12,987 nt of DNA, from the UHGV virus genome UHGV-0056732, one strand, 5' to 3'. Position 1 is the stretch's first letter, and the number at the start of each line of letters is the position of its first letter. This document shows positions 2,435 through 10,932 of this stretch, piece after piece. The position numbers and the translations under genes were made by a program. Below the pieces are notes generated by a model that was given only the letters and a program-made list of their open reading frames with translations, did no database searches and was not told the DNA's origin. This DNA comes from a virus.

Positions 2435-4321
2435 ATGGAACAGTTCAATATCAATAAAGGGGTGACGATCAAGCCTGGGCTTGACGTGCTTCCCCCGCCA
2501 GTGACTGATGATGAATATCGCGCATTAATGGCCGGTGAGGACCGCTATCTGATGACGGAATCCAACACCCTGGAGGAAATCGAGGCTACGTTCTTCTATG
2601 ACACGCCGATCCACTGGTGTGCTACGGATTTACTGGAGGCGATTAGTTCTACTCGTTTGCAGCTACACCGGACCATGCAGGCATTTGTCCGGGCATTGAA
2701 CCAGAAGCTGAATGGTACCGGAATCTCTGCGGGGAGTGATAAAACGGGGGATGTGGCCCAGAACGGTGCACGCGCGATCGGCGGGGCTGAAATTGGCCGG
2801 GCACGTAACGTTAACGGGCTGCCGGTCCTGCCAGCCATTATTCCGCTCAGTGATGGTCAGACTATCAGCATTCTGTTTCATAGCCCGACAGCGGAAAACC
2901 GGATCACCAATAGCGATACGCTGATTGCTTTCCAGTTCTTACTGAATAAAAAAGACGTTACTCATACCGTTGCTCCGATGAGTGGACGTGATATGACGCT
3001 GGCGCAGGTCACCATGAAACTTGCCAACCTTGCAGAGAAAAACTCGGCAAAATTCCAGCGTGCGCAGAAGAAGAAAAAAGCCCTGGTTGATGAAATAACC
3101 CAACTACAGGCTGACAGTGACCAGAAAGAGGATGCCATGAGCGACCTCGCGGATCAGGTGGCAGCGGTAGAAGGGCAGAAGGTAGATCTGGAGCAGAAAA
3201 TTAACGCTGTTGCATCGGAAGCGGATTCTCTTTATGAAGAGAATGAGCGTTTGCAGACGGAGATTGATCAGCTCAATCGAACTGGTGGGCGCGAAACCAT
3301 TGCTCCTGCGGGGATGACTGGTGGACACTCTCGCGCGATGACGGATCGCCTTGCAAGTATCAAAAATCGTATGCATATGAACGGGGAAGTGACGCTCAGT
3401 AATGGTGCATCAATGAAGCAATTCATTGAGGACGGTGAAGGGTATATCCAGTTAACCGATTCGGATGGCAGCGTGTACATGATCAAGGCTAAATCCATAC
3501 AGGGTGTGGACATGGCAGATGCGATCGGCAAGCTGTTTAAAGCCTATAAAGCGGGTAATGTATCGGAATACCTGGTCCAACCAGAAGAACATAAACCGGA
3601 AAACGTCGAACCTGAACCAGAAGTCTCTGTAGGTGCATATCGATATGCCCTGCAAATGCGTCCGGCGGCCCCTGGCGCAATACCTGAAGGTAACAAAGCA
3701 ATTCTGCTGCGCCCTGATGAAGGTGACCCGTATTATGAATATGCACGCTACGGCATTGCTACTTACGATACCCCGCTTTCTGATCAGCAAATGAGTGAGT
3801 ACGACCTGAAGTTATTGCCTCGCGAGGATTCTTTCGACTTCCTGGCGAAGACACTTACTAATGGTCCGTTTGGCAAATATGCACAAAAAGCTCTGGAGCT
3901 GGCCACCAGCTCACCAGACGAGTTCCGCGTAATGCTGAAAACTCAGTTTCAAAAAACTTTCCCCAATATTGCGTTTCCGGGGGGCGCTGGCACCGAGAAA
4001 ATGGTGCAGAGCATGATCAATGCATTGCAGGCCGAAGTCGGTGAGATTACTCAGCCAGAACCGGCCCCGGCACAGCCTGATGAAACGGTTAGCGAAGCAG
4101 ATGCAGAGGCTAATAAAGCCATTGAATATCTCAATAACGTGATGGATATGCAAAGCACTGACATGGCGGAGATCCGTAACGCCCGGGGCAATGTCCGGGA
4201 AGCGATTGCAGCCCTTCAGGCTGCCGGACGTTTTGAGGAAAACGAAGAGCTGGTTAACGGCGCAGCTCGCCACCTGGCTGATCTGCTGGTAGCAATCCAG
4301 AAAGCGGGGGTAGCGGCATGA
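2435..4321 (+). CDS. darA: DarA-like virion-packaged anti-restriction / head protein, 628 aa
   Basis: ATG at 2435; size and operon position match P1 darA as recalled; central coiled-coil (about residues 200-285); shares a motif with hdf; stop overlaps the ddrA start (ATGA at 4318-4321). Confidence 0.7.
   Translation: MEQFNINKGVTIKPGLDVLPPPVTDDEYRALMAGEDRYLMTESNTLEEIEATFFYDTPIHWCATDLLEAISSTRLQLHRTMQAFVRALNQKLNGTGISAGSDKTGDVAQNGARAIGGAEIGRARNVNGLPVLPAIIPLSDGQTISILFHSPTAENRITNSDTLIAFQFLLNKKDVTHTVAPMSGRDMTLAQVTMKLANLAEKNSAKFQRAQKKKKALVDEITQLQADSDQKEDAMSDLADQVAAVEGQKVDLEQKINAVASEADSLYEENERLQTEIDQLNRTGGRETIAPAGMTGGHSRAMTDRLASIKNRMHMNGEVTLSNGASMKQFIEDGEGYIQLTDSDGSVYMIKAKSIQGVDMADAIGKLFKAYKAGNVSEYLVQPEEHKPENVEPEPEVSVGAYRYALQMRPAAPGAIPEGNKAILLRPDEGDPYYEYARYGIATYDTPLSDQQMSEYDLKLLPREDSFDFLAKTLTNGPFGKYAQKALELATSSPDEFRVMLKTQFQKTFPNIAFPGGAGTEKMVQSMINALQAEVGEITQPEPAPAQPDETVSEADAEANKAIEYLNNVMDMQSTDMAEIRNARGNVREAIAALQAAGRFEENEELVNGAARHLADLLVAIQKAGVAA
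3038..3058 (+). repeat. 21-nt direct repeat copy 2 (within darA), encoding KNSAKFQ
   Basis: AAAAACTCGGCAAAATTCCAG; single mismatch relative to 2140-2160. Confidence 0.6.
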
Positions 4322-4683
4322 CACTATCAGCTATTGAGTTAATGGATCTCAGCGATAAGTTGGATGCTCTGATGTCCAAAGCGGCTACCGCGAGTGGTAT
4401 GGAGTTGCTGGATATCAGCGATGAAATTGACCAGATCATGCAACAGATGGGGTACGGCGCGTCTGGCGGCGGTAGTGGCGAGGAGAAACAACCTTCGGAA
4501 CATGATGGTGTGCCAAAACTGGTTGCTGATTTCCTGGCTGATAAATTCGTCGATCAGAGCACAGATGCATTTATCGGTACCTTGCAGGACTTGAGTCAAT
4601 ATGTTGGCACATACATCGACCTGGACCAGGTTAAACAGCACACGGCGGCATGGATAGCCGCCAACATTAAAGAGGCAGCATAA
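4318..4683 (+). CDS. ddrA: DdrA-like small acidic protein, 121 aa
   Basis: ATG at 4318 translationally coupled to darA; strongly acidic composition (many D/E, no Arg); Gly/Ser-rich linker (GASGGGSGEE). Confidence 0.6.
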   Translation: MTLSAIELMDLSDKLDALMSKAATASGMELLDISDEIDQIMQQMGYGASGGGSGEEKQPSEHDGVPKLVADFLADKFVDQSTDAFIGTLQDLSQYVGTYIDLDQVKQHTAAWIAANIKEAA

Positions 4684-4695
4684 GGCGTAACAGGG

Positions 4696-7683
4696 ATGAG
4701 CTTAAGCGATCAGGTGGTAATGGCCACCAGCATAGAAACGCTGATCGAGCTGCTAAAGAACCTGCCCGATTATGGGCGGGTTTCGTATGTGGTGACAGCG
4801 AAGGGAGACGAGGTAAAAACAGCGTTTGATATCGTCGATGCCTCAGCTCTTTTGGTATCCAATACTCTGGATGGGAAAATTAATCCAGACTATCCCCAGG
4901 AACTTCAGCCGCGCGACCGGACCCGCGCATCCAGCCTTCTTCAGGTCAACCAGATATCCAAGGATTTGCGTCCTGCCCAGCTTACCGATTCCGGTTTATC
5001 CAGCCATGGCGCGCCAATAATTGGTGAGGACAATGCCGTTGAGTCAGGTAATGGGCGGACCATGGGGATCATTAAAGCCTATCAGGACGGTAATGCGGAT
5101 CGGTATCGGGAGTACCTGATTGAACATGCGACCGAATTCGGCATACGGCCTGAAAAGGTTGAATCAATGACGGCTCCGGTACTGGTGCGCCGCCGGTTAA
5201 CGACGGTTGACCGTGTTCAGTTTGCCAAGGACTCAAATATTTCTGATCTCCAGGAAATGGCAGCCAGTGAAAAGGCTTTTGTTGATGCCGACAGCATAAC
5301 ACCGGCGATGATGGCGCTTTTTAACCCGTCAGAAAGCGGAGATCTGCTTAGCCGCAGTAATGACGCGTTTATTCGCGGATTTATGACGCAAGTTGGTGCC
5401 ACACAGGCGGCTGGCCTTGTAACTGAAGATGGGCGACCAACACGGCAACTTGTTGACCGTATACAAAACGCGATCTTTGCCAAGGCATATAAGGATGCGC
5501 GCCTGGTAAGGATGGTTGCAGAAGAACCTGATCCGGATATGCGTAATGTTCTGACGGCGCTTAATGCGGCAGCCAATGATTTTGTCCAGATGCAGGCTTT
5601 ATCAGGAGAAGCGCACAAGCAGGCTGTGACAACTATTGTTGATGGCATTGAGACAGCGGATAGCCTCGATAAAAAGGCGCTGGCGGCATTGAAAGATGCG
5701 GTAGACCTGGTAAGGCAATCGAAGGAGTCAGGCCAGCATATTACCGATGTTATTGCTCAGGGGGATATGTTCAGCGAAACGGCCCCGGAAGTGAAAGCAC
5801 TCGCGTTGTTCATCGTCGCGAATAACCGTAGCGCGAAGCGTATGGCCACCGCCTTTAAGTTGATGGCTCAACGTATCAATGATGAGTTACAGCACCAGGG
5901 CCAGGCGCTGGGGGATATGTTTGGCGGCGGCGATGTGTCGTTACAGGATATCCTTCGCCAGGTGTCTCAGGAACTGGAAAACGAAGGCATGCAAGGGATA
6001 TCCGGCGGTCTTTTCGAGTCCGTTTCCGGCGGTAGTTACAACGGTGTTGCTCCGTATACCAGTTTGCTATTACATCGGGCATCCGGCATCAAAGACATTA
6101 TTCATCTGATCAGGCTGCTTTCCCGCACAGATCCCCAGGATGAACAGCTTGTACAAGTGCTTGCGCATTTTGTTCGAATGCCTGTTGCCGACGTGAAAAA
6201 ATGGTGCCGATTATTCGGTATCAGCAATTCGTTACTTCGCGGCTTGTTAAATCACGCATCCTCCCTTGGGCGCGATGGCTTTGACGAGATAGCGCAGGCG
6301 ATAAAAAACGGAGATATGCCACCAGCTATTGACTGGTTTTCCATTCGCCCAACCAGGGTGAAAGCATTCCTTAGCGCGGCGCATTCGGCATCACCATTGG
6401 CAGAAATGGTTCAGAGGTTATCGCTCATATTCACAGACCATACCGCGTTGGGTGATCTGACTCTGGACGAGATGAAGGAAGCCTCCATTCAGTGGGCCGA
6501 TCAACAAAATGAGGTTAACTCAGACTTCTTGCCAGCATTCAGGAAGGCCGTTAGTAAAGCGGATGATGCCCGTGGAATTCTGAAGGCATTTAAGGCATTG
6601 CAAAGTCGTGTTAATAAACATGTCGGTGATATCGATGGGGTAACGGCGGAAGGCAGGGATATCCTCAAAGAGCACGGCATAACGCCAGAGTTTATTGATG
6701 AGATCAGGACGGATATGCAGCGTGAGGTCGTATCGTCCCTGCAAATCGTAGCCAGAGCGTTGGCGGATGCTAATCCGAAGAGTGCGGCCATTGTTAACCG
6801 GGTTATTGGTGATATTGAAGCATCGGAGGGCATGGGGGCGCTGAAACTCTTCCTTTCGCGAGCGTTTAATCCTAACGGCAATATTCTCCCTGGCATTATT
6901 GGTGAGGCTAAAAAGTATGTCAGTGAAGAAGAACTTGAGCAGCTTGACCAACTACTTAAGCGATTCTCATATAACCCGCAGACACGCTGGCAAATGAATC
7001 AGCGAAGTATGGGTTCGGTCCACGAGAAAGTGTTATCTGCCATGAACAGTGCGATCGCAAACTCATCCGTATCTGAAGAAAAAGCTCTTGAGTGGGCCGA
7101 CTCTTTTATCACAGAAGAAGTGGAAGAAGCCCGCGCTGGACAGAATGGTGGGATAGACCTGCGCAAGGAACTTGCTGATATTTATCGCCTGACCGGCGGG
7201 AAAATATCGACCTTATCAAAGGTAGTTCACCACCAGGGAAGGGCATATGCAAATCTAAATGGTGTTGTTGCTGTCAATTTGAACGATAAAAATGCAAGTG
7301 CACTGTGGCACGAGCTGGGTCATCATCTTGAGTACAGTAACCCTGGTTTGTTAGAGAAAGCCCGGTCATTCCTGAAGGCCAATGTTGAAGGGGATAAGCC
7401 ATCATTCGTCAATATCGGTGGGCGTGGCAAGCCTGAATGGTGCTTCAGATCTCGATTGAGTAATATTTATATGGCGAAGGTATACCCGCCAGCCTCAGTA
7501 AGTAATTCCGGGAAAATTCGGCAGAAATCACCGACTATTTCCAAAACGTCAGCAACGGAAGTATTCTCTATGGCTCTTCAGTTGTATCATGACAAAGAGG
7601 CCGCTGCCGCATCACTGATGAATGGTGACGGATTGCTGGAACTGTTATTAGGTGTGGCAAAGGAGCTAAATAATGCAGATTAA
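4696..7683 (+). CDS. ddrB: DdrB-like large protein, 995 aa, with an N-terminal ParB/Srx-like motif region and a C-terminal HExxH zinc-metallopeptidase-like motif
   Basis: ATG at 4696; residues about 60-130 carry a ParB-N-like pattern (NPDYPQELQPRDR ... APIIGEDNAVESGNGRTMGI); residues 872-876 are HELGH (nt 7309-7323) followed by H877 and E887; size matches the roughly 108-kDa P1 DdrB as recalled. Confidence 0.65.
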   Translation: MSLSDQVVMATSIETLIELLKNLPDYGRVSYVVTAKGDEVKTAFDIVDASALLVSNTLDGKINPDYPQELQPRDRTRASSLLQVNQISKDLRPAQLTDSGLSSHGAPIIGEDNAVESGNGRTMGIIKAYQDGNADRYREYLIEHATEFGIRPEKVESMTAPVLVRRRLTTVDRVQFAKDSNISDLQEMAASEKAFVDADSITPAMMALFNPSESGDLLSRSNDAFIRGFMTQVGATQAAGLVTEDGRPTRQLVDRIQNAIFAKAYKDARLVRMVAEEPDPDMRNVLTALNAAANDFVQMQALSGEAHKQAVTTIVDGIETADSLDKKALAALKDAVDLVRQSKESGQHITDVIAQGDMFSETAPEVKALALFIVANNRSAKRMATAFKLMAQRINDELQHQGQALGDMFGGGDVSLQDILRQVSQELENEGMQGISGGLFESVSGGSYNGVAPYTSLLLHRASGIKDIIHLIRLLSRTDPQDEQLVQVLAHFVRMPVADVKKWCRLFGISNSLLRGLLNHASSLGRDGFDEIAQAIKNGDMPPAIDWFSIRPTRVKAFLSAAHSASPLAEMVQRLSLIFTDHTALGDLTLDEMKEASIQWADQQNEVNSDFLPAFRKAVSKADDARGILKAFKALQSRVNKHVGDIDGVTAEGRDILKEHGITPEFIDEIRTDMQREVVSSLQIVARALADANPKSAAIVNRVIGDIEASEGMGALKLFLSRAFNPNGNILPGIIGEAKKYVSEEELEQLDQLLKRFSYNPQTRWQMNQRSMGSVHEKVLSAMNSAIANSSVSEEKALEWADSFITEEVEEARAGQNGGIDLRKELADIYRLTGGKISTLSKVVHHQGRAYANLNGVVAVNLNDKNASALWHELGHHLEYSNPGLLEKARSFLKANVEGDKPSFVNIGGRGKPEWCFRSRLSNIYMAKVYPPASVSNSGKIRQKSPTISKTSATEVFSMALQLYHDKEAAAASLMNGDGLLELLLGVAKELNNAD

Positions 7684-7993
7684 AATCGCAGCGCCATTAG
7701 GCGGAGATGCCATTATCGAATTTGATGATAATGAAGAAGTTTCCGGGCGTTTGAGCATTATCTCCGGTGACATTACCGAGGACATGATCGCTGAAGCCAT
7801 AGCTGGGGCAAATCCCAATAGCTATATGGGATTCGTTAACACCCTTGATGCTCCCGCAAGTGATGTTCTCCGAACGCTGCATCTTTACGCTGGCTGGTTT
7901 GTTGATTGGCCAGCAGTAGATGGTGGCGATGAGGATGATGATGACGATGAAGAGGTTTTTAGTGATGAAACAGTAAACCAACTCTTGTATTGA
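7673..7993 (+). CDS. Hypothetical highly acidic protein, 106 aa, translationally coupled to ddrB
   Basis: ATG at 7673 overlapping the ddrB 3' end by 11 nt, SD AAGGAG 7 nt upstream; poly-acidic C-terminus DGGDEDDDDDEEVFSDE; about 27 D/E versus 3-4 K/R. Confidence 0.6.
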   Translation: MQIKIAAPLGGDAIIEFDDNEEVSGRLSIISGDITEDMIAEAIAGANPNSYMGFVNTLDAPASDVLRTLHLYAGWFVDWPAVDGGDEDDDDDEEVFSDETVNQLLY

Positions 7994-8123
7994 CAGGAAT
8001 TGGCATAGAATTGATTGTTCAAATTTCATCCATCACATAGACGACTTCATGTTATTTGCCTGATAATTATGGCCTTAATAACCCATGTATATCTTTTGGG
8101 TTATATTCTTATCTTTAACAAGG

Positions 8124-8167
8124 TTATAAGAGCGACAATGATAAATTTATCACTATCGCTCTTATAA
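8124..8167. repeat. 44-bp near-perfect palindrome between convergent genes; possible terminator and/or protein-binding site
   Basis: TTATAAGAGCGACAAT-GATAAATTTATC-ACTATCGCTCTTATAA: 16-bp arms (14/16 complementary) around a perfect 12-bp palindromic core; followed by T-rich CTCTTTGTT; lies between the stop of the 106-aa ORF (7993) and the stop of the minus-strand 95-aa ORF (8197). Confidence 0.5.
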
Positions 8168-8196
8168 CTCTTTGTTAGCTATAGCTTTAAACAAAT

Positions 8197-8484
8197 TTAG
8201 TTTTGAGGCAATGCAACAAAAGTCAGCTCTTGATCTTTGATTAATGCTTTTGTTTGTTTGGATGTAATTCCCACTTTAGTTTTTACATCATTGTGGAGCT
8301 TCTTATACGCTTTTATTTCATCTGCTGTATATCGGAAGCCATTTGCACTGTTACTGGACAGTTGAAGTGCGATTACGTCATCACTGACACCCGCATCGCT
8401 TAGCTTAGCTATGCGGGTAATAGTGTGGCCTGCGCGAGTGTTTGGGGTGGATATTTTGTCTAAGAAATTGTTCAGTTTTTCCAT
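8197..8484 (-). CDS. Hypothetical small protein, 95 aa, possibly HTH DNA-binding, in an AT-rich island
   Basis: ATG at 8484 with SD AGAGG 9 nt upstream; segment HTITRIAKLSDAGVSDDVIALQL resembles a helix-turn-helix; visibly AT-rich flanks; own upstream region separated from the 263-aa gene by a terminator. Confidence 0.55.
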   Translation of the reverse strand: MEKLNNFLDKISTPNTRAGHTITRIAKLSDAGVSDDVIALQLSSNSANGFRYTADEIKAYKKLHNDVKTKVGITSKQTKALIKDQELTFVALPQN

Positions 8485-8706
8485 TGTTTACAACCTCTTA
8501 CTTGAGTTTATTGCCAGTAGAATTGCTACTATTCTTTTGCCTCAACGAATCACAATGTACTGGAATAAGAAACTATGAGCAATACTTACGCTTTGCGAAT
8601 ACAGAAGATGAATAATCAACTTATTACTAAAATGTTAATAATATTATTCTGTTACATAGTGTTCGCTATAACAATCGGGAGTTGAATGCTAATTCAATAA
8701 ATAAAG

Positions 8707-8732
8707 ACCCCGCCAATTGGCGGGTTCTTTTT
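8707..8732 (-). terminator. Rho-independent terminator just downstream of the 263-aa gene; also usable on the plus strand
   Basis: GC stem CCCGCC(8709-8714)/GGCGGG(8719-8724) with 4-nt loop AATT; T-run TTCTTTTT (8725-8732) on plus, GTCTTTATT on minus. Confidence 0.6.
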
Positions 8733-9519
8733 AATCACTTTCCACTTCTCCCGTGGTGTTTTCTTGCAGTTCTGTTAATGCAGCACGACATAGGTTCCGG
8801 GCATTGGCTATAGCCACACTTTTGACTTCATCCGTCATCGTGCAGGTAATGTACTGATCGAGTTCTTCATCGCGGATGATGCTTTTGCCAATCAGAAACT
8901 GTATTTGCCAGAGCAGATCGGCATCCATAATCAGAATTTCTGCCGGGCCTTCAGGGCCAGCCGGGAAGGAAACATAAGACTGTTTGCCCAGGCCGACAAC
9001 TCGACAACTTGCTTCAAGAATTGCGCGCTTGAGGTCTGACTTTATAACGGAAACAGGTTGATTTTCACCAGTGATTACGCCGTTGACATGGAAAGGCATG
9101 TAGCTTGAAATTCGCTCTACTTTCCATACGCCAGCAAGCGATCCTTCATGCAGCACAATGGGGGTAACCGCGAGTTTCATCTCACCATATAACTGCTGGC
9201 AGATAGCTGGATTGCTGAATACATCCAAAGGTTCACACTCAAACAGCGGCGCAATCTGCATGAGGTCCATCATGGTCATCCCTGGGGTACGAGCAGTAAT
9301 GAATCTGCGCATACCAGTATCCATTGCGCTCCAGATTGCTACACCATGCTTTTTGCTCACTTCTTCAGTAAAGCCAAGGTGGCACATGATGGTTTTTTCG
9401 ATAGCCAGATCAGAGATAGAAACCTTTTCGCCTGGCACTCCATCATTATTGACGGTCACTTCGACACTCTGGCCATTACGCAGGCGGTATTGAATTGTTT
9501 TAGTATTTTGTGCTGTCAT
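8731..9519 (-). CDS. Hypothetical protein, 262 aa, unknown function, directly downstream of ssb
   Basis: ATG at 9519 (MTAQNTK...) with SD GAGGAAA 7 nt upstream; the longer ORF to 9639 has no RBS; no terminator seen between ssb and this gene; terminator follows at 8707-8732. No family recognised; hhhhDxD-like ILIMDAD at residues 195-201 is weak, non-diagnostic evidence. Confidence 0.65.
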   Translation of the reverse strand: MTAQNTKTIQYRLRNGQSVEVTVNNDGVPGEKVSISDLAIEKTIMCHLGFTEEVSKKHGVAIWSAMDTGMRRFITARTPGMTMMDLMQIAPLFECEPLDVFSNPAICQQLYGEMKLAVTPIVLHEGSLAGVWKVERISSYMPFHVNGVITGENQPVSVIKSDLKRAILEASCRVVGLGKQSYVSFPAGPEGPAEILIMDADLLWQIQFLIGKSIIRDEELDQYITCTMTDEVKSVAIANARNLCRAALTELQENTTGEVESD

Positions 9520-9716: not shown

Positions 9717-10205
9717 TCAAAACGGAATATCGTCGTCAAAGTCCATTGGAGGTTCGTTATTGGCGTTGCTCTGAGGTTTACCGCCACCGCTGTATTGCTG
9801 GTGGTTTTGAGGTTGGTTTGATTGCCCCCAGCCATTTGAGGACTGTGAATCGTCACGGCGAGCGCCGATCATTTGCATGGTGCCGCCCTGGCTGACGATA
9901 ATTTCCGTCGTGTAACGTTCTACACCGGCGTCATCTGTCCACTTACGGGTTTTAAGTTTCCCTTCGATGTAGACCTGAGAACCTTTTCGTAAATACTCAC
10001 TCGCAATTTCAGCAAGTTTTCCGAACAAAACGACTTTATGCCATTCTGTTTGCTCTTTCTGTTGGCCCGTTTGCTTGTCGCGCCATGATTCATTCGTTGC
10101 GATGCTGAGTCTTCCGACCGCGACGCCATTTGGTATATACCTGATCTCCGGGTCTTGCCCCAGGGTACCAATCAGGATGACTTTGTTTACACCGCGTTGT
10201 GCCAC
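9717..10205 (-). CDS. ssb: Single-stranded DNA-binding protein (SSB), about 162 aa
   Basis: Canonical SSB OB-fold sequence ([20 protein letters not shown] ... [37 protein letters not shown]), Gly/Gln-rich tail and C-terminal [11 protein letters not shown]. Start taken as GTG at 10205 (MAQRGVNKV) by alignment to E. coli SSB; the ORF-track start at 10226 is a TTG. Confidence 0.9.
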
Positions 10206-10224
10206 TTTTCTTACCCAATAAAAC

Positions 10225-10241
10225 AAATTAATTAGAGCAAT
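10225..10241 (-). promoter_or_regulatory. Near-consensus P1 C1-repressor operator in the ssb/lyz divergent control region
   Basis: Minus strand reads ATTGCTCTAATTAATTT, 16 of 17 matches to the recalled P1 C1 operator consensus ATTGCTCTAATAAATTT; lies 20-36 bp upstream of the ssb GTG start. Confidence 0.55.
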
Positions 10242-10268: not shown

Positions 10269-10287
10269 AAGTGATTTGCATTATCCT
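10269..10287 (+). promoter_or_regulatory. Candidate P1-type late promoter for lyz
   Basis: AAGTGATTT (10269-10277) - GCAT - TATCCT (10282-10287); same architecture and spacing as the lydA-upstream element. Confidence 0.4.
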
Positions 10288-10374
10288 GTGCCTTCTAAAG
10301 GGATCGAGTCAGTCGGTATTGGCTGTGAATGGGTGTTTGTCCTGGAGCGTAAAAAATTCGCTTATGAGGTCTTT

Positions 10375-10932
10375 ATGAAGGGAAAAACAGCCGCAGGAGG
10401 CGGTGCAATTTGCGCTATCGCGGTGATGATTACCATCGTGATGGGTAATGGCAATGTGCGAACCAACCAGGCGGGGCTTGAGCTGATTGGTAACGCTGAA
10501 GGTTGCCGACGTGATCCATACATGTGCCCTGCGGGGGTATGGACTGACGGGATCGGTAATACACACGGGGTAACGCCGGGTGTGCGAAAAACCGACCAGC
10601 AAATCGCCGCTGATTGGGAAAAGAATATCCTGATCGCTGAACGCTGTATTAATCAGCACTTCCGGGGCAAAGACATGCCCGATAATGCCTTCAGTGCAAT
10701 GACAAGCGCGGCATTCAATATGGGATGCAATAGCTTACGGACCTACTACAGCAAAGCGCGAGGCATGCGAGTAGAAACGTCCATCCACAAGTGGGCGCAG
10801 AAAGGGGAATGGGTGAATATGTGTAACCATCTCCCTGATTTCGTGAACAGTAACGGCGTGCCCCTGCGAGGTTTAAAGATTCGCCGTGAAAAAGAACGCC
10901 AGCTTTGCCTGACGGGACTGGTCAATGAATAA
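10375..10932 (+). CDS. lyz: SAR endolysin (T4-type lysozyme with N-terminal signal-anchor-release domain), 185 aa
   Basis: ATG at 10375 with GAGG SD; N-terminus MKGKTAAGGGAICAIAVMITIVMGNG is a Gly/Ala-rich weakly hydrophobic SAR helix; Cys13, Cys44, Cys51 with Glu42 and Thr57 reproduce the disulfide-isomerisation arrangement described for P1 Lyz; lysozyme core (NAEGCRRDPYMCPAGVWTDGIGNTHGV). Confidence 0.9.
   Translation: MKGKTAAGGGAICAIAVMITIVMGNGNVRTNQAGLELIGNAEGCRRDPYMCPAGVWTDGIGNTHGVTPGVRKTDQQIAADWEKNILIAERCINQHFRGKDMPDNAFSAMTSAAFNMGCNSLRTYYSKARGMRVETSIHKWAQKGEWVNMCNHLPDFVNSNGVPLRGLKIRREKERQLCLTGLVNE

Follow-up and report, generated by a model that had tools for sequence, protein, structure and literature searches.

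A long AT-rich palindrome between the converging hxr and 95-aa genes of a P1-like phage-plasmid is probably the transcript-end hairpin of a small foreign cassette

What role, if any, does a long and nearly perfect palindrome play between two converging genes of a P1-like phage-plasmid? The element lies at 8123-8168 of the window, by which we mean the whole stretch of DNA analysed here (12,987 nt of UHGV virus genome UHGV-0056732). A sequence-only reading had offered two answers: a bidirectional terminator, AT-rich and weakly U-tailed, or a symmetric site for a repressor-like protein, either C1, whose operators the arms appeared to resemble in degenerate form, or the predicted helix-turn-helix product of the neighbouring gene. 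We found that the terminator is the best-supported of these on position and comparison, but that it is marginal by classical scoring, and that neither version of the binding site fares well.

The window belongs to a P1-like phage-plasmid (Punavirus): positions 7600-7950 match P1, P7, SJ46, RCS47 and others at 97-99% identity, and ddrA, ddrB and hxr are annotated over the matching region in the P1 record. The plus strand carries darA (2435-4321), ddrA (4318-4683), ddrB (4696-7683) and, as the last gene of that unit, hxr (7673-7993), whose stop lies 130 nt before the palindrome. From the other side comes a gene for a 95-aa protein (8197-8484, minus strand), with a predicted helix-turn-helix, a good Shine-Dalgarno sequence (AAGAGG, read from the sequence) and a stop 29 nt before the palindrome; isaA-like genes and ssb follow beyond it, also on the minus strand. 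The palindrome thus does separate convergent units, as had been claimed, with stops at 7993 (+) and 8197 (-), and no other notable structure occurs in the 203 nt that separate them. Over its full length the region shares 99.3% identity with Escherichia phage vB_EcoM-Ro157c2YLVW and at least 98.5% with 15 non-mobilizable plasmids of E. coli and E. albertii. Promoter-like matches in 7600-8800 number two, against 3.7 expected by chance, and the scan of that interval found no convincing sigma-70 promoter upstream of the 95-aa gene.

Some smaller features of this neighbourhood deserve mention. In P1, hxr is annotated as a 'possible repressor, homolog of Xre'; the hxr of the window has no HTH match in Pfam or NCBIfam, its only match being PHROG 2292 (function not known). 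The acidic C-terminal tail of Hxr varies between lineages, and identity to the other P1-like phages falls within the last ~45 nt of the gene. A hydrophobic 32-codon ORF (MALITHVYLLGYILIFNKVIRATMINLSLSLL) at 8069-8167 (+), part of a 50-aa ORF with a TTG start at 8015-8167, ends inside the palindrome. We considered and rejected a small RNA or hydrophobic peptide between hxr and the palindrome: there is a promoter-like site at 8038-8067, but promoter matches here are below chance, and the 32-codon ORF lacks both a Shine-Dalgarno sequence and a family match, its ATG lying upstream of the expected start. It is probably an artefact of AT-rich sequence.

A repeat search resolved the palindrome, present by its nature on both strands, into two arms of 23 nt, 8123-8145 and 8146-8168, with no spacer and with 21 of the 23 pairs complementary (91-92%). 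The long, near-perfect 44-bp palindrome of the sequence-only reading, at 8124-8167, is therefore real, and is the inner portion of a 46-bp element that one more G-C pair (8123/8168) extends. Read from the sequence, complementarity fails at two pairs, 8136(C)/8155(A) and 8138(A)/8153(C). The stem is ~30% GC, and its base consists of one G-C pair followed by six A-U pairs. A weaker symmetry continues into the flanks, where AACAAGG at 8117-8123 faces CTCTTTGTT at 8168-8176. This is the sole palindrome of 23+23 nt with at most two mismatched pairs within the window, and the best palindrome both there and in the related 80.7-kb phage genome (Ro157c2YLVW); in 300 composition-matched random sequences of 13 kb, five palindromes of 23+23 nt reached even six or fewer mismatched pairs. 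The palindrome is thus far above chance expectation. No second copy with up to two mismatches was found elsewhere in the window.

Folding energy had been named beforehand as a check on the element, and the calculation gives a strong stem-loop on either strand. RNA of 8100-8200 folds with -28.3 kcal/mol when read from the plus strand (z -6.6) and with -36.0 kcal/mol from the minus strand (z -8.0), while the palindrome folded as DNA has z -8.75; in none of these cases did a shuffled sequence equal the native one. For the isolated hairpin the values are -20.9 kcal/mol (+) and -28.7 kcal/mol (-). The minus-strand transcript forms a continuous 21-bp stem with a 4-nt loop in which both imperfect pairs become G.U, and the plus-strand transcript forms an outer stem of 13 bp and an inner stem of 5 bp, split by a 3x3 internal loop that holds the two C/A mismatches. 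Both imperfect pairs are transitions kept paired in the minus-strand RNA, which is weak evidence because chance alone would place both there with a probability of 0.25. Rfam, searched with a permissive threshold, returned sub-threshold matches alone, all to eukaryotic miRNA-precursor models, and these reflect a generic long hairpin.

The symmetry of the flanks means that the hairpin is followed by a U-containing tail in each direction, UCUUUGUU (+) and CCUUGUUA (-). The plus-strand tail, which would follow transcripts of the darA operon and hxr, is U-rich (8169-8176, TCTTTGTT, 6/8 T); that of the 95-aa gene is weaker (8115-8122, CCTTGTTA on the minus strand, 4/8 T). Both are of the type YCUU(U)GUU and both match A-rich tracts upstream, which is the layout of a two-way terminator. 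Measured against a U-tract of about five or more U in eight on each strand, the palindrome thus has six on the plus strand and four on the minus strand.

The history of the locus says more about the palindrome than its sequence does on its face. Homology with other P1-like phages runs, at lower identity, up to the hxr stop codon and then ends. In SJ46, RCS47 and 813R1, a canonical, GC-rich two-way terminator (AAATCCCGCC-nnnn-GGCGGGATTTTT) begins 3 nt past the hxr stop, with the end of isaA directly after it. Its homologue is present in the window at 8709-8724 (CCCGCCAATTGGCGGG with T-runs, GC-rich and bidirectional), from which it follows that a segment of ~707 bp has been inserted between hxr and its own terminator, so that the latter now stands about 700 bp from hxr in this lineage, where it serves isaA and separates that gene from the insertion. 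The inserted cassette, covering both strands from 7994 to ~8700 (its right boundary is approximate), has a GC content of 30-39% against 45-51% in the surroundings, and the one gene in it that has a good ribosome-binding site (AAGAGG) is the 95-aa ORF. Its carriers are phage Ro157c2YLVW, 15 plasmids and, among 5426 complete E. coli genomes, 25; P1, P7, SJ46, RCS47, JL22 and 813R1 lack it. We regard the cassette as horizontally acquired foreign DNA. It falls within the isaA-IS1-isaB region, one of eight highly variable, low-GC regions in P1-like phage-plasmids (PMC9603915); this site holds isaB and IS1 in P1 and a porin gene in P7 and JL22.

Among the carriers compared (15 plasmids, 25 E. coli genomes, five IMG/VR contigs and phage Ro157c2YLVW, all at least 98.5% identical), the palindrome is the same in every one but a plasmid of E. 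albertii, whose left arm has lost 1 bp at its outer end. Because these relatives are near-identical and compensatory changes are absent, covariation could not be counted. The palindrome was not found beyond the known carriers by distant BLAST against phages, plasmids and E. coli genomes, and a viral scan returned the same P1-like contigs alone. An apparent second location in MH160767 was merely the palindrome matching itself in reverse. When genome contigs were scanned with a pattern of 10-nt arms, more than 120 matches appeared in unrelated phyla; we rejected these as homologues, as the inner stems and loops were all different and the pattern is too unspecific; most of these hairpins are terminator-like. 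Nor is the palindrome a dispersed repeat or MITE of the REP or ERIC kind, as each carrier has a single copy, invariably in this P1-like setting, and there is none on the chromosomes of the 5426 E. coli genomes, other plasmids or phages. Similarity to a lox- or cix-like recombination site, judged by eye, is trivial.

What stands at the homologous position elsewhere is more informative. After hxr, three lineages have three different hairpins: the GC-rich terminator of SJ46, RCS47 and 813R1, a GTGGCTTGCTT..AAGCAAGCCA stem ~62 nt past the stop in P1, P7 and JL22, and the palindrome, at +130, in the lineage of the window. The other side of the palindrome can be compared through the family of the 95-aa protein, for which we examined the contigs that encode homologues 37-58% identical, ~27 metagenomic loci and three plasmids of Pseudomonas or Aliivibrio, the homologues in the loci and plasmids being 31-58% identical. 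Most of these genes are followed, ~3-60 nt past the stop, by a hairpin of unrelated sequence, and at least 15 of the hairpins are canonical terminators of A-tract, GC-stem and T-tract (e.g., AAAAATCCCCTTTTAAAAGGGGATTTTT and AAAAGGCGCCACAGGTGCCTTTTTT), often between converging genes; in a few cases the stem is long and the tail weak, as with one of 19 bp and AT-rich (L011) and one of 16 bp (L176). For the hairpins after hxr and in the gaps we used the positions and sequences given by a sliding scorer, whose discriminant scores are unusable, T-tails having been absorbed into stems. With hairpins in homologous contexts on both sides, the palindrome takes the place that a terminator would have in each of the two converging units. 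In two Pseudomonas plasmids, whose homologues are 33-40% identical, a hairpin directly follows the gene, and ~50 nt downstream the two share a conserved AT-rich motif (L185, ~2340-2365, GCCTATTATAAAACTAATAGGCATT; L186, ~2360-2385, GCTAATTATAAAAGTTATAGGCATT), their intergenic surroundings being otherwise unalignable.

Position and comparison, then, suggest that the palindrome is probably a bidirectional terminator or 3'-end hairpin of the small foreign cassette. It lies where a bidirectional terminator is expected, at the 3' ends of two converging units. Classical scoring is less favourable, since such a terminator should combine a GC-rich stem and base with a positive discriminant and the palindrome has neither. 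Its scores are -5.5 (+) and -6.1 (-), as compared to +34.6 and +6.9 for the terminator at 8709-8724, on a scale that is approximate, the discriminant being of d'Aubenton-Carafa type and computed with modern energy parameters; a consensus terminator scan did not call the palindrome either.

One could envision the following course of events on the two strands. By parting hxr from its original GC-rich terminator, the insertion would have left the palindrome as the first and sole strong structure that late transcripts of the darA operon meet, and there the plus-strand stem, followed by UCUUUGUU, would guard the 95-aa gene against read-through in antisense. In minus-strand transcripts, the 21-bp stem 29 nt past the 95-aa stop, followed by CCUUGUU, would end or stabilise the 95-aa mRNA and keep that transcript from antisense entry into hxr and ddrB. 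Because the base of the stem is AU-rich and the tails are short, termination at the palindrome would probably be partial, and the hairpin may also protect 3' ends made further downstream (e.g., by Rho) from exonuclease trimming. It is from the structure of the element, its position, the history of the insertion and the positional analogy that we infer termination or protection as such.

Alternatively, the palindrome may have no current function in E. coli, being a leftover of an AT-rich donor (an old terminator, for example) or a quasi-palindrome that template switching made perfect. The classical terminator scores of the palindrome are under threshold, and the cassette, of low GC content and foreign origin, is recent, with at least 98.5% identity in all carriers; because of that recency, the invariance of the palindrome says nothing on selection. 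However, where converging genes are transcribed, so stable a stem would form in the RNA anyway, here with U-containing tails on both sides, and since the insertion it is the sole structure available to end darA-operon transcripts before they pass in antisense through the 95-aa gene. We consider a relic unlikely.

A second alternative takes the palindrome as an operator-like DNA site, bound by the 95-aa helix-turn-helix protein or by another dimeric or tetrameric DNA-binding protein, so that the cassette would be a pair of protein and site. The palindrome has the dyad symmetry that such a site calls for, and the neighbouring protein, proposed earlier as an HTH candidate, is indeed modelled with a helix-turn-helix fold, predicted to be like that of small terminases or of sigma region 4; no tie between this protein and the palindrome was found, however. 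Searches with the protein gave nothing significant in Pfam, NCBIfam, PADLOC or PDB sequences and a weak, spurious match in PHROGs. Its family comprises 10 word-indexed homologues and, by profile search, 151 representatives at 50% identity, and occurs in plasmids and phages. Within the part of the gene that encodes the predicted helix-turn-helix lies a separate, imperfect palindrome of 30 bp (ACCCGCATCGCTTAGCTTAGCTATGCGGGT, 8389-8418) with a GC-rich outer stem of 8 bp.

An operator of such a protein should either sit at a promoter or be repeated, and a related site should accompany the homologues; we found none of this. The palindrome is past a stop codon, between two 3' ends and away from any promoter, in a neighbourhood where promoter-like matches are fewer than chance (2 vs 3.7). 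A second copy or half-site is absent both upstream of the gene (8485-8708) and elsewhere in the window. In the flanks of 29 homologous genes, neither the outer arm nor the GC core nor the inner palindrome was enriched as compared to shuffles, and at the same position the homologues carry unrelated canonical terminators. The geometry is also unlike that of a simple operator for an HTH dimer, at 46 bp with perfect arms of 13 bp set 20 bp apart. Finally, the palindrome is unchanged in one relative whose 95-aa gene is frameshifted, although this case carries little weight because divergence is too low. The relative in question is a plasmid of E. coli 2014C-3011 (NZ_CP027590.1, our L144), in which a +1 T frameshift at ~1790-2036 leaves an annotated, truncated CDS of 69 aa. 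The proposal of a symmetric site for the adjacent protein thus found no support, having neither a second arm copy near the promoter region nor a related motif beside the homologues, and we regard the binding-site explanation as rather improbable. More doubtful still is a specific two-part cassette in which the 95-aa protein binds the palindrome beside its own gene and the hairpin doubles as a DNA (or cruciform) target. If true, such a unit could serve, for example, in silencing converging late transcription, in plasmid maintenance or in interference with another element.

The long duplex could also act mainly as a target of RNase III, controlling how stable the 95-aa mRNA is, or overlapping transcripts of the converging units are, much as lambda sib retroregulates int. 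RNase III needs about two helical turns of duplex. A substrate of this kind should offer ~20 bp or more of continuous dsRNA, which the minus-strand RNA does, as a continuous helix of 21 bp including the two G.U pairs, and the stem is much longer than a terminator requires. Yet transcripts would contain the helix whether they terminate or read through, leaving no obvious switch, and the corresponding position in the homologues is taken by short canonical terminators. By analogy, then, control through RNase III is possible, but we hold it to be quite unlikely.

The weakest alternative, that the arms are degenerate operators at which the P1 C1 repressor binds to repress or to loop DNA, is very hard to credit. 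Against the 17-bp consensus ATTGCTCTAATAAATTT (PMC8546580), the match counts of 12-13 of 17 given by the sequence-only reading are correct (8155-8171, ATCGCTCTTATAACTCT, 13/17; mirror arm, 8136->8120, GTCGCTCTTATAACCTT, 12/17), and 8155-8171 is the second-best match in the window to a PWM that we built from 14 operator-like sites (at most three mismatches to the consensus) in the related genome Ro157c2YLVW. However, the arms score 10.1 and 3.3 bits as compared to 19.7-29 for the 14 sites, the next-best non-operator in the related genome itself scores 12.2 bits, and 10.1 bits or more is reached in 44% of random 13-kb sequences and in 18% of random AT-rich sequences of 715 nt; likewise, the two matches with up to four mismatches in the window compare with 0.63 expected (P(>=2) = 0.15). 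The positions T3 and A9 are invariant in all 14 sites, and the arms have C3 and T9 instead. In real bivalent operators the 5' ends point outward and the two sites overlap at AAATTT; in the palindrome, the 5' ends of the arms point inward and are 16 bp apart, at a site between two 3' ends that has no promoter to control. With a score at chance level, broken invariant positions and the wrong geometry, the arms thus have none of the close consensus match, invariant core and promoter overlap or orientation expected of C1 operators, and that part of the earlier proposal falls away. The window does hold one genuine C1 site, and one alone: an operator at 10225-10241 (-), ATTGCTCTAATTAATTT, with one mismatch and 26.6 bits, between the start of ssb (9717-10226, -) and the lysozyme gene (10276-10932, +).

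Taken as the probable transcript-end hairpin, the palindrome would be an instance of a small foreign gene in the variable region between hxr and isaA bringing its own 3' structure, one that, with the original terminator displaced, also has to insulate the 95-aa gene from the strongly expressed, late darA (anti-restriction) operon. The P1-like phage-plasmids concerned are common in Shiga-toxin-producing E. coli (STEC) O111, O157 and O103 and in E. albertii. Beyond annotation the importance of the palindrome is little, and the uncharacterised HTH-like family of the 95-aa protein is the more interesting part of the region. For these prophages, the site should not be counted among the operators controlled by C1, which removes a false lead.

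How, then, does the element compare with known systems? It is like the 17-bp asymmetric C1 operators of P1 in its AT-richness and in a GCTCT..ATAA core, and the bivalent C1 operators (Ro157c2YLVW 645-677 and 60476-60503) are likewise palindromes, centred on AAATTT; the arms differ in having four to five mismatches, PWM scores 10 to 16 bits below the weakest site (19.7), the opposite orientation and no promoter. With the lambda sib hairpin it shares a long RNA duplex just past a stop codon, a possible substrate for RNase III cleavage; in contrast to sib, alternative terminated and read-through structures are not in evidence at the palindrome.

As for the cassette, phage 'morons', a concept that comes from the lambdoid phages HK97 and HK022, are units of promoter, gene and terminator placed between conserved phage genes. 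The cassette is like them in that one small foreign gene, with a deviating GC content and a downstream hairpin of its own, stands between two conserved genes in a known variable region; unlike them, its gene has no convincing sigma-70 promoter upstream. The closest comparison for the palindrome itself is with bidirectional Rho-independent terminators such as that at 8709-8724 and its counterpart in SJ46 and RCS47, with which it has in common a stem-loop on two strands between converging 3' ends, mirrored flanks that are A-rich upstream and T-rich downstream, and the same position in homologous contexts. Typical E. coli terminator stems are much shorter than 21-23 bp. The palindrome departs from the canonical form in just this respect, its stem having 21-23 bp against ~6-12 bp, and also in its GC content of ~30%, its AU-rich base, its short or interrupted tails and a discriminant slightly negative on both strands. 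It is thus an element of an ordinary kind, unusually long and AT-rich, and specific to its lineage.
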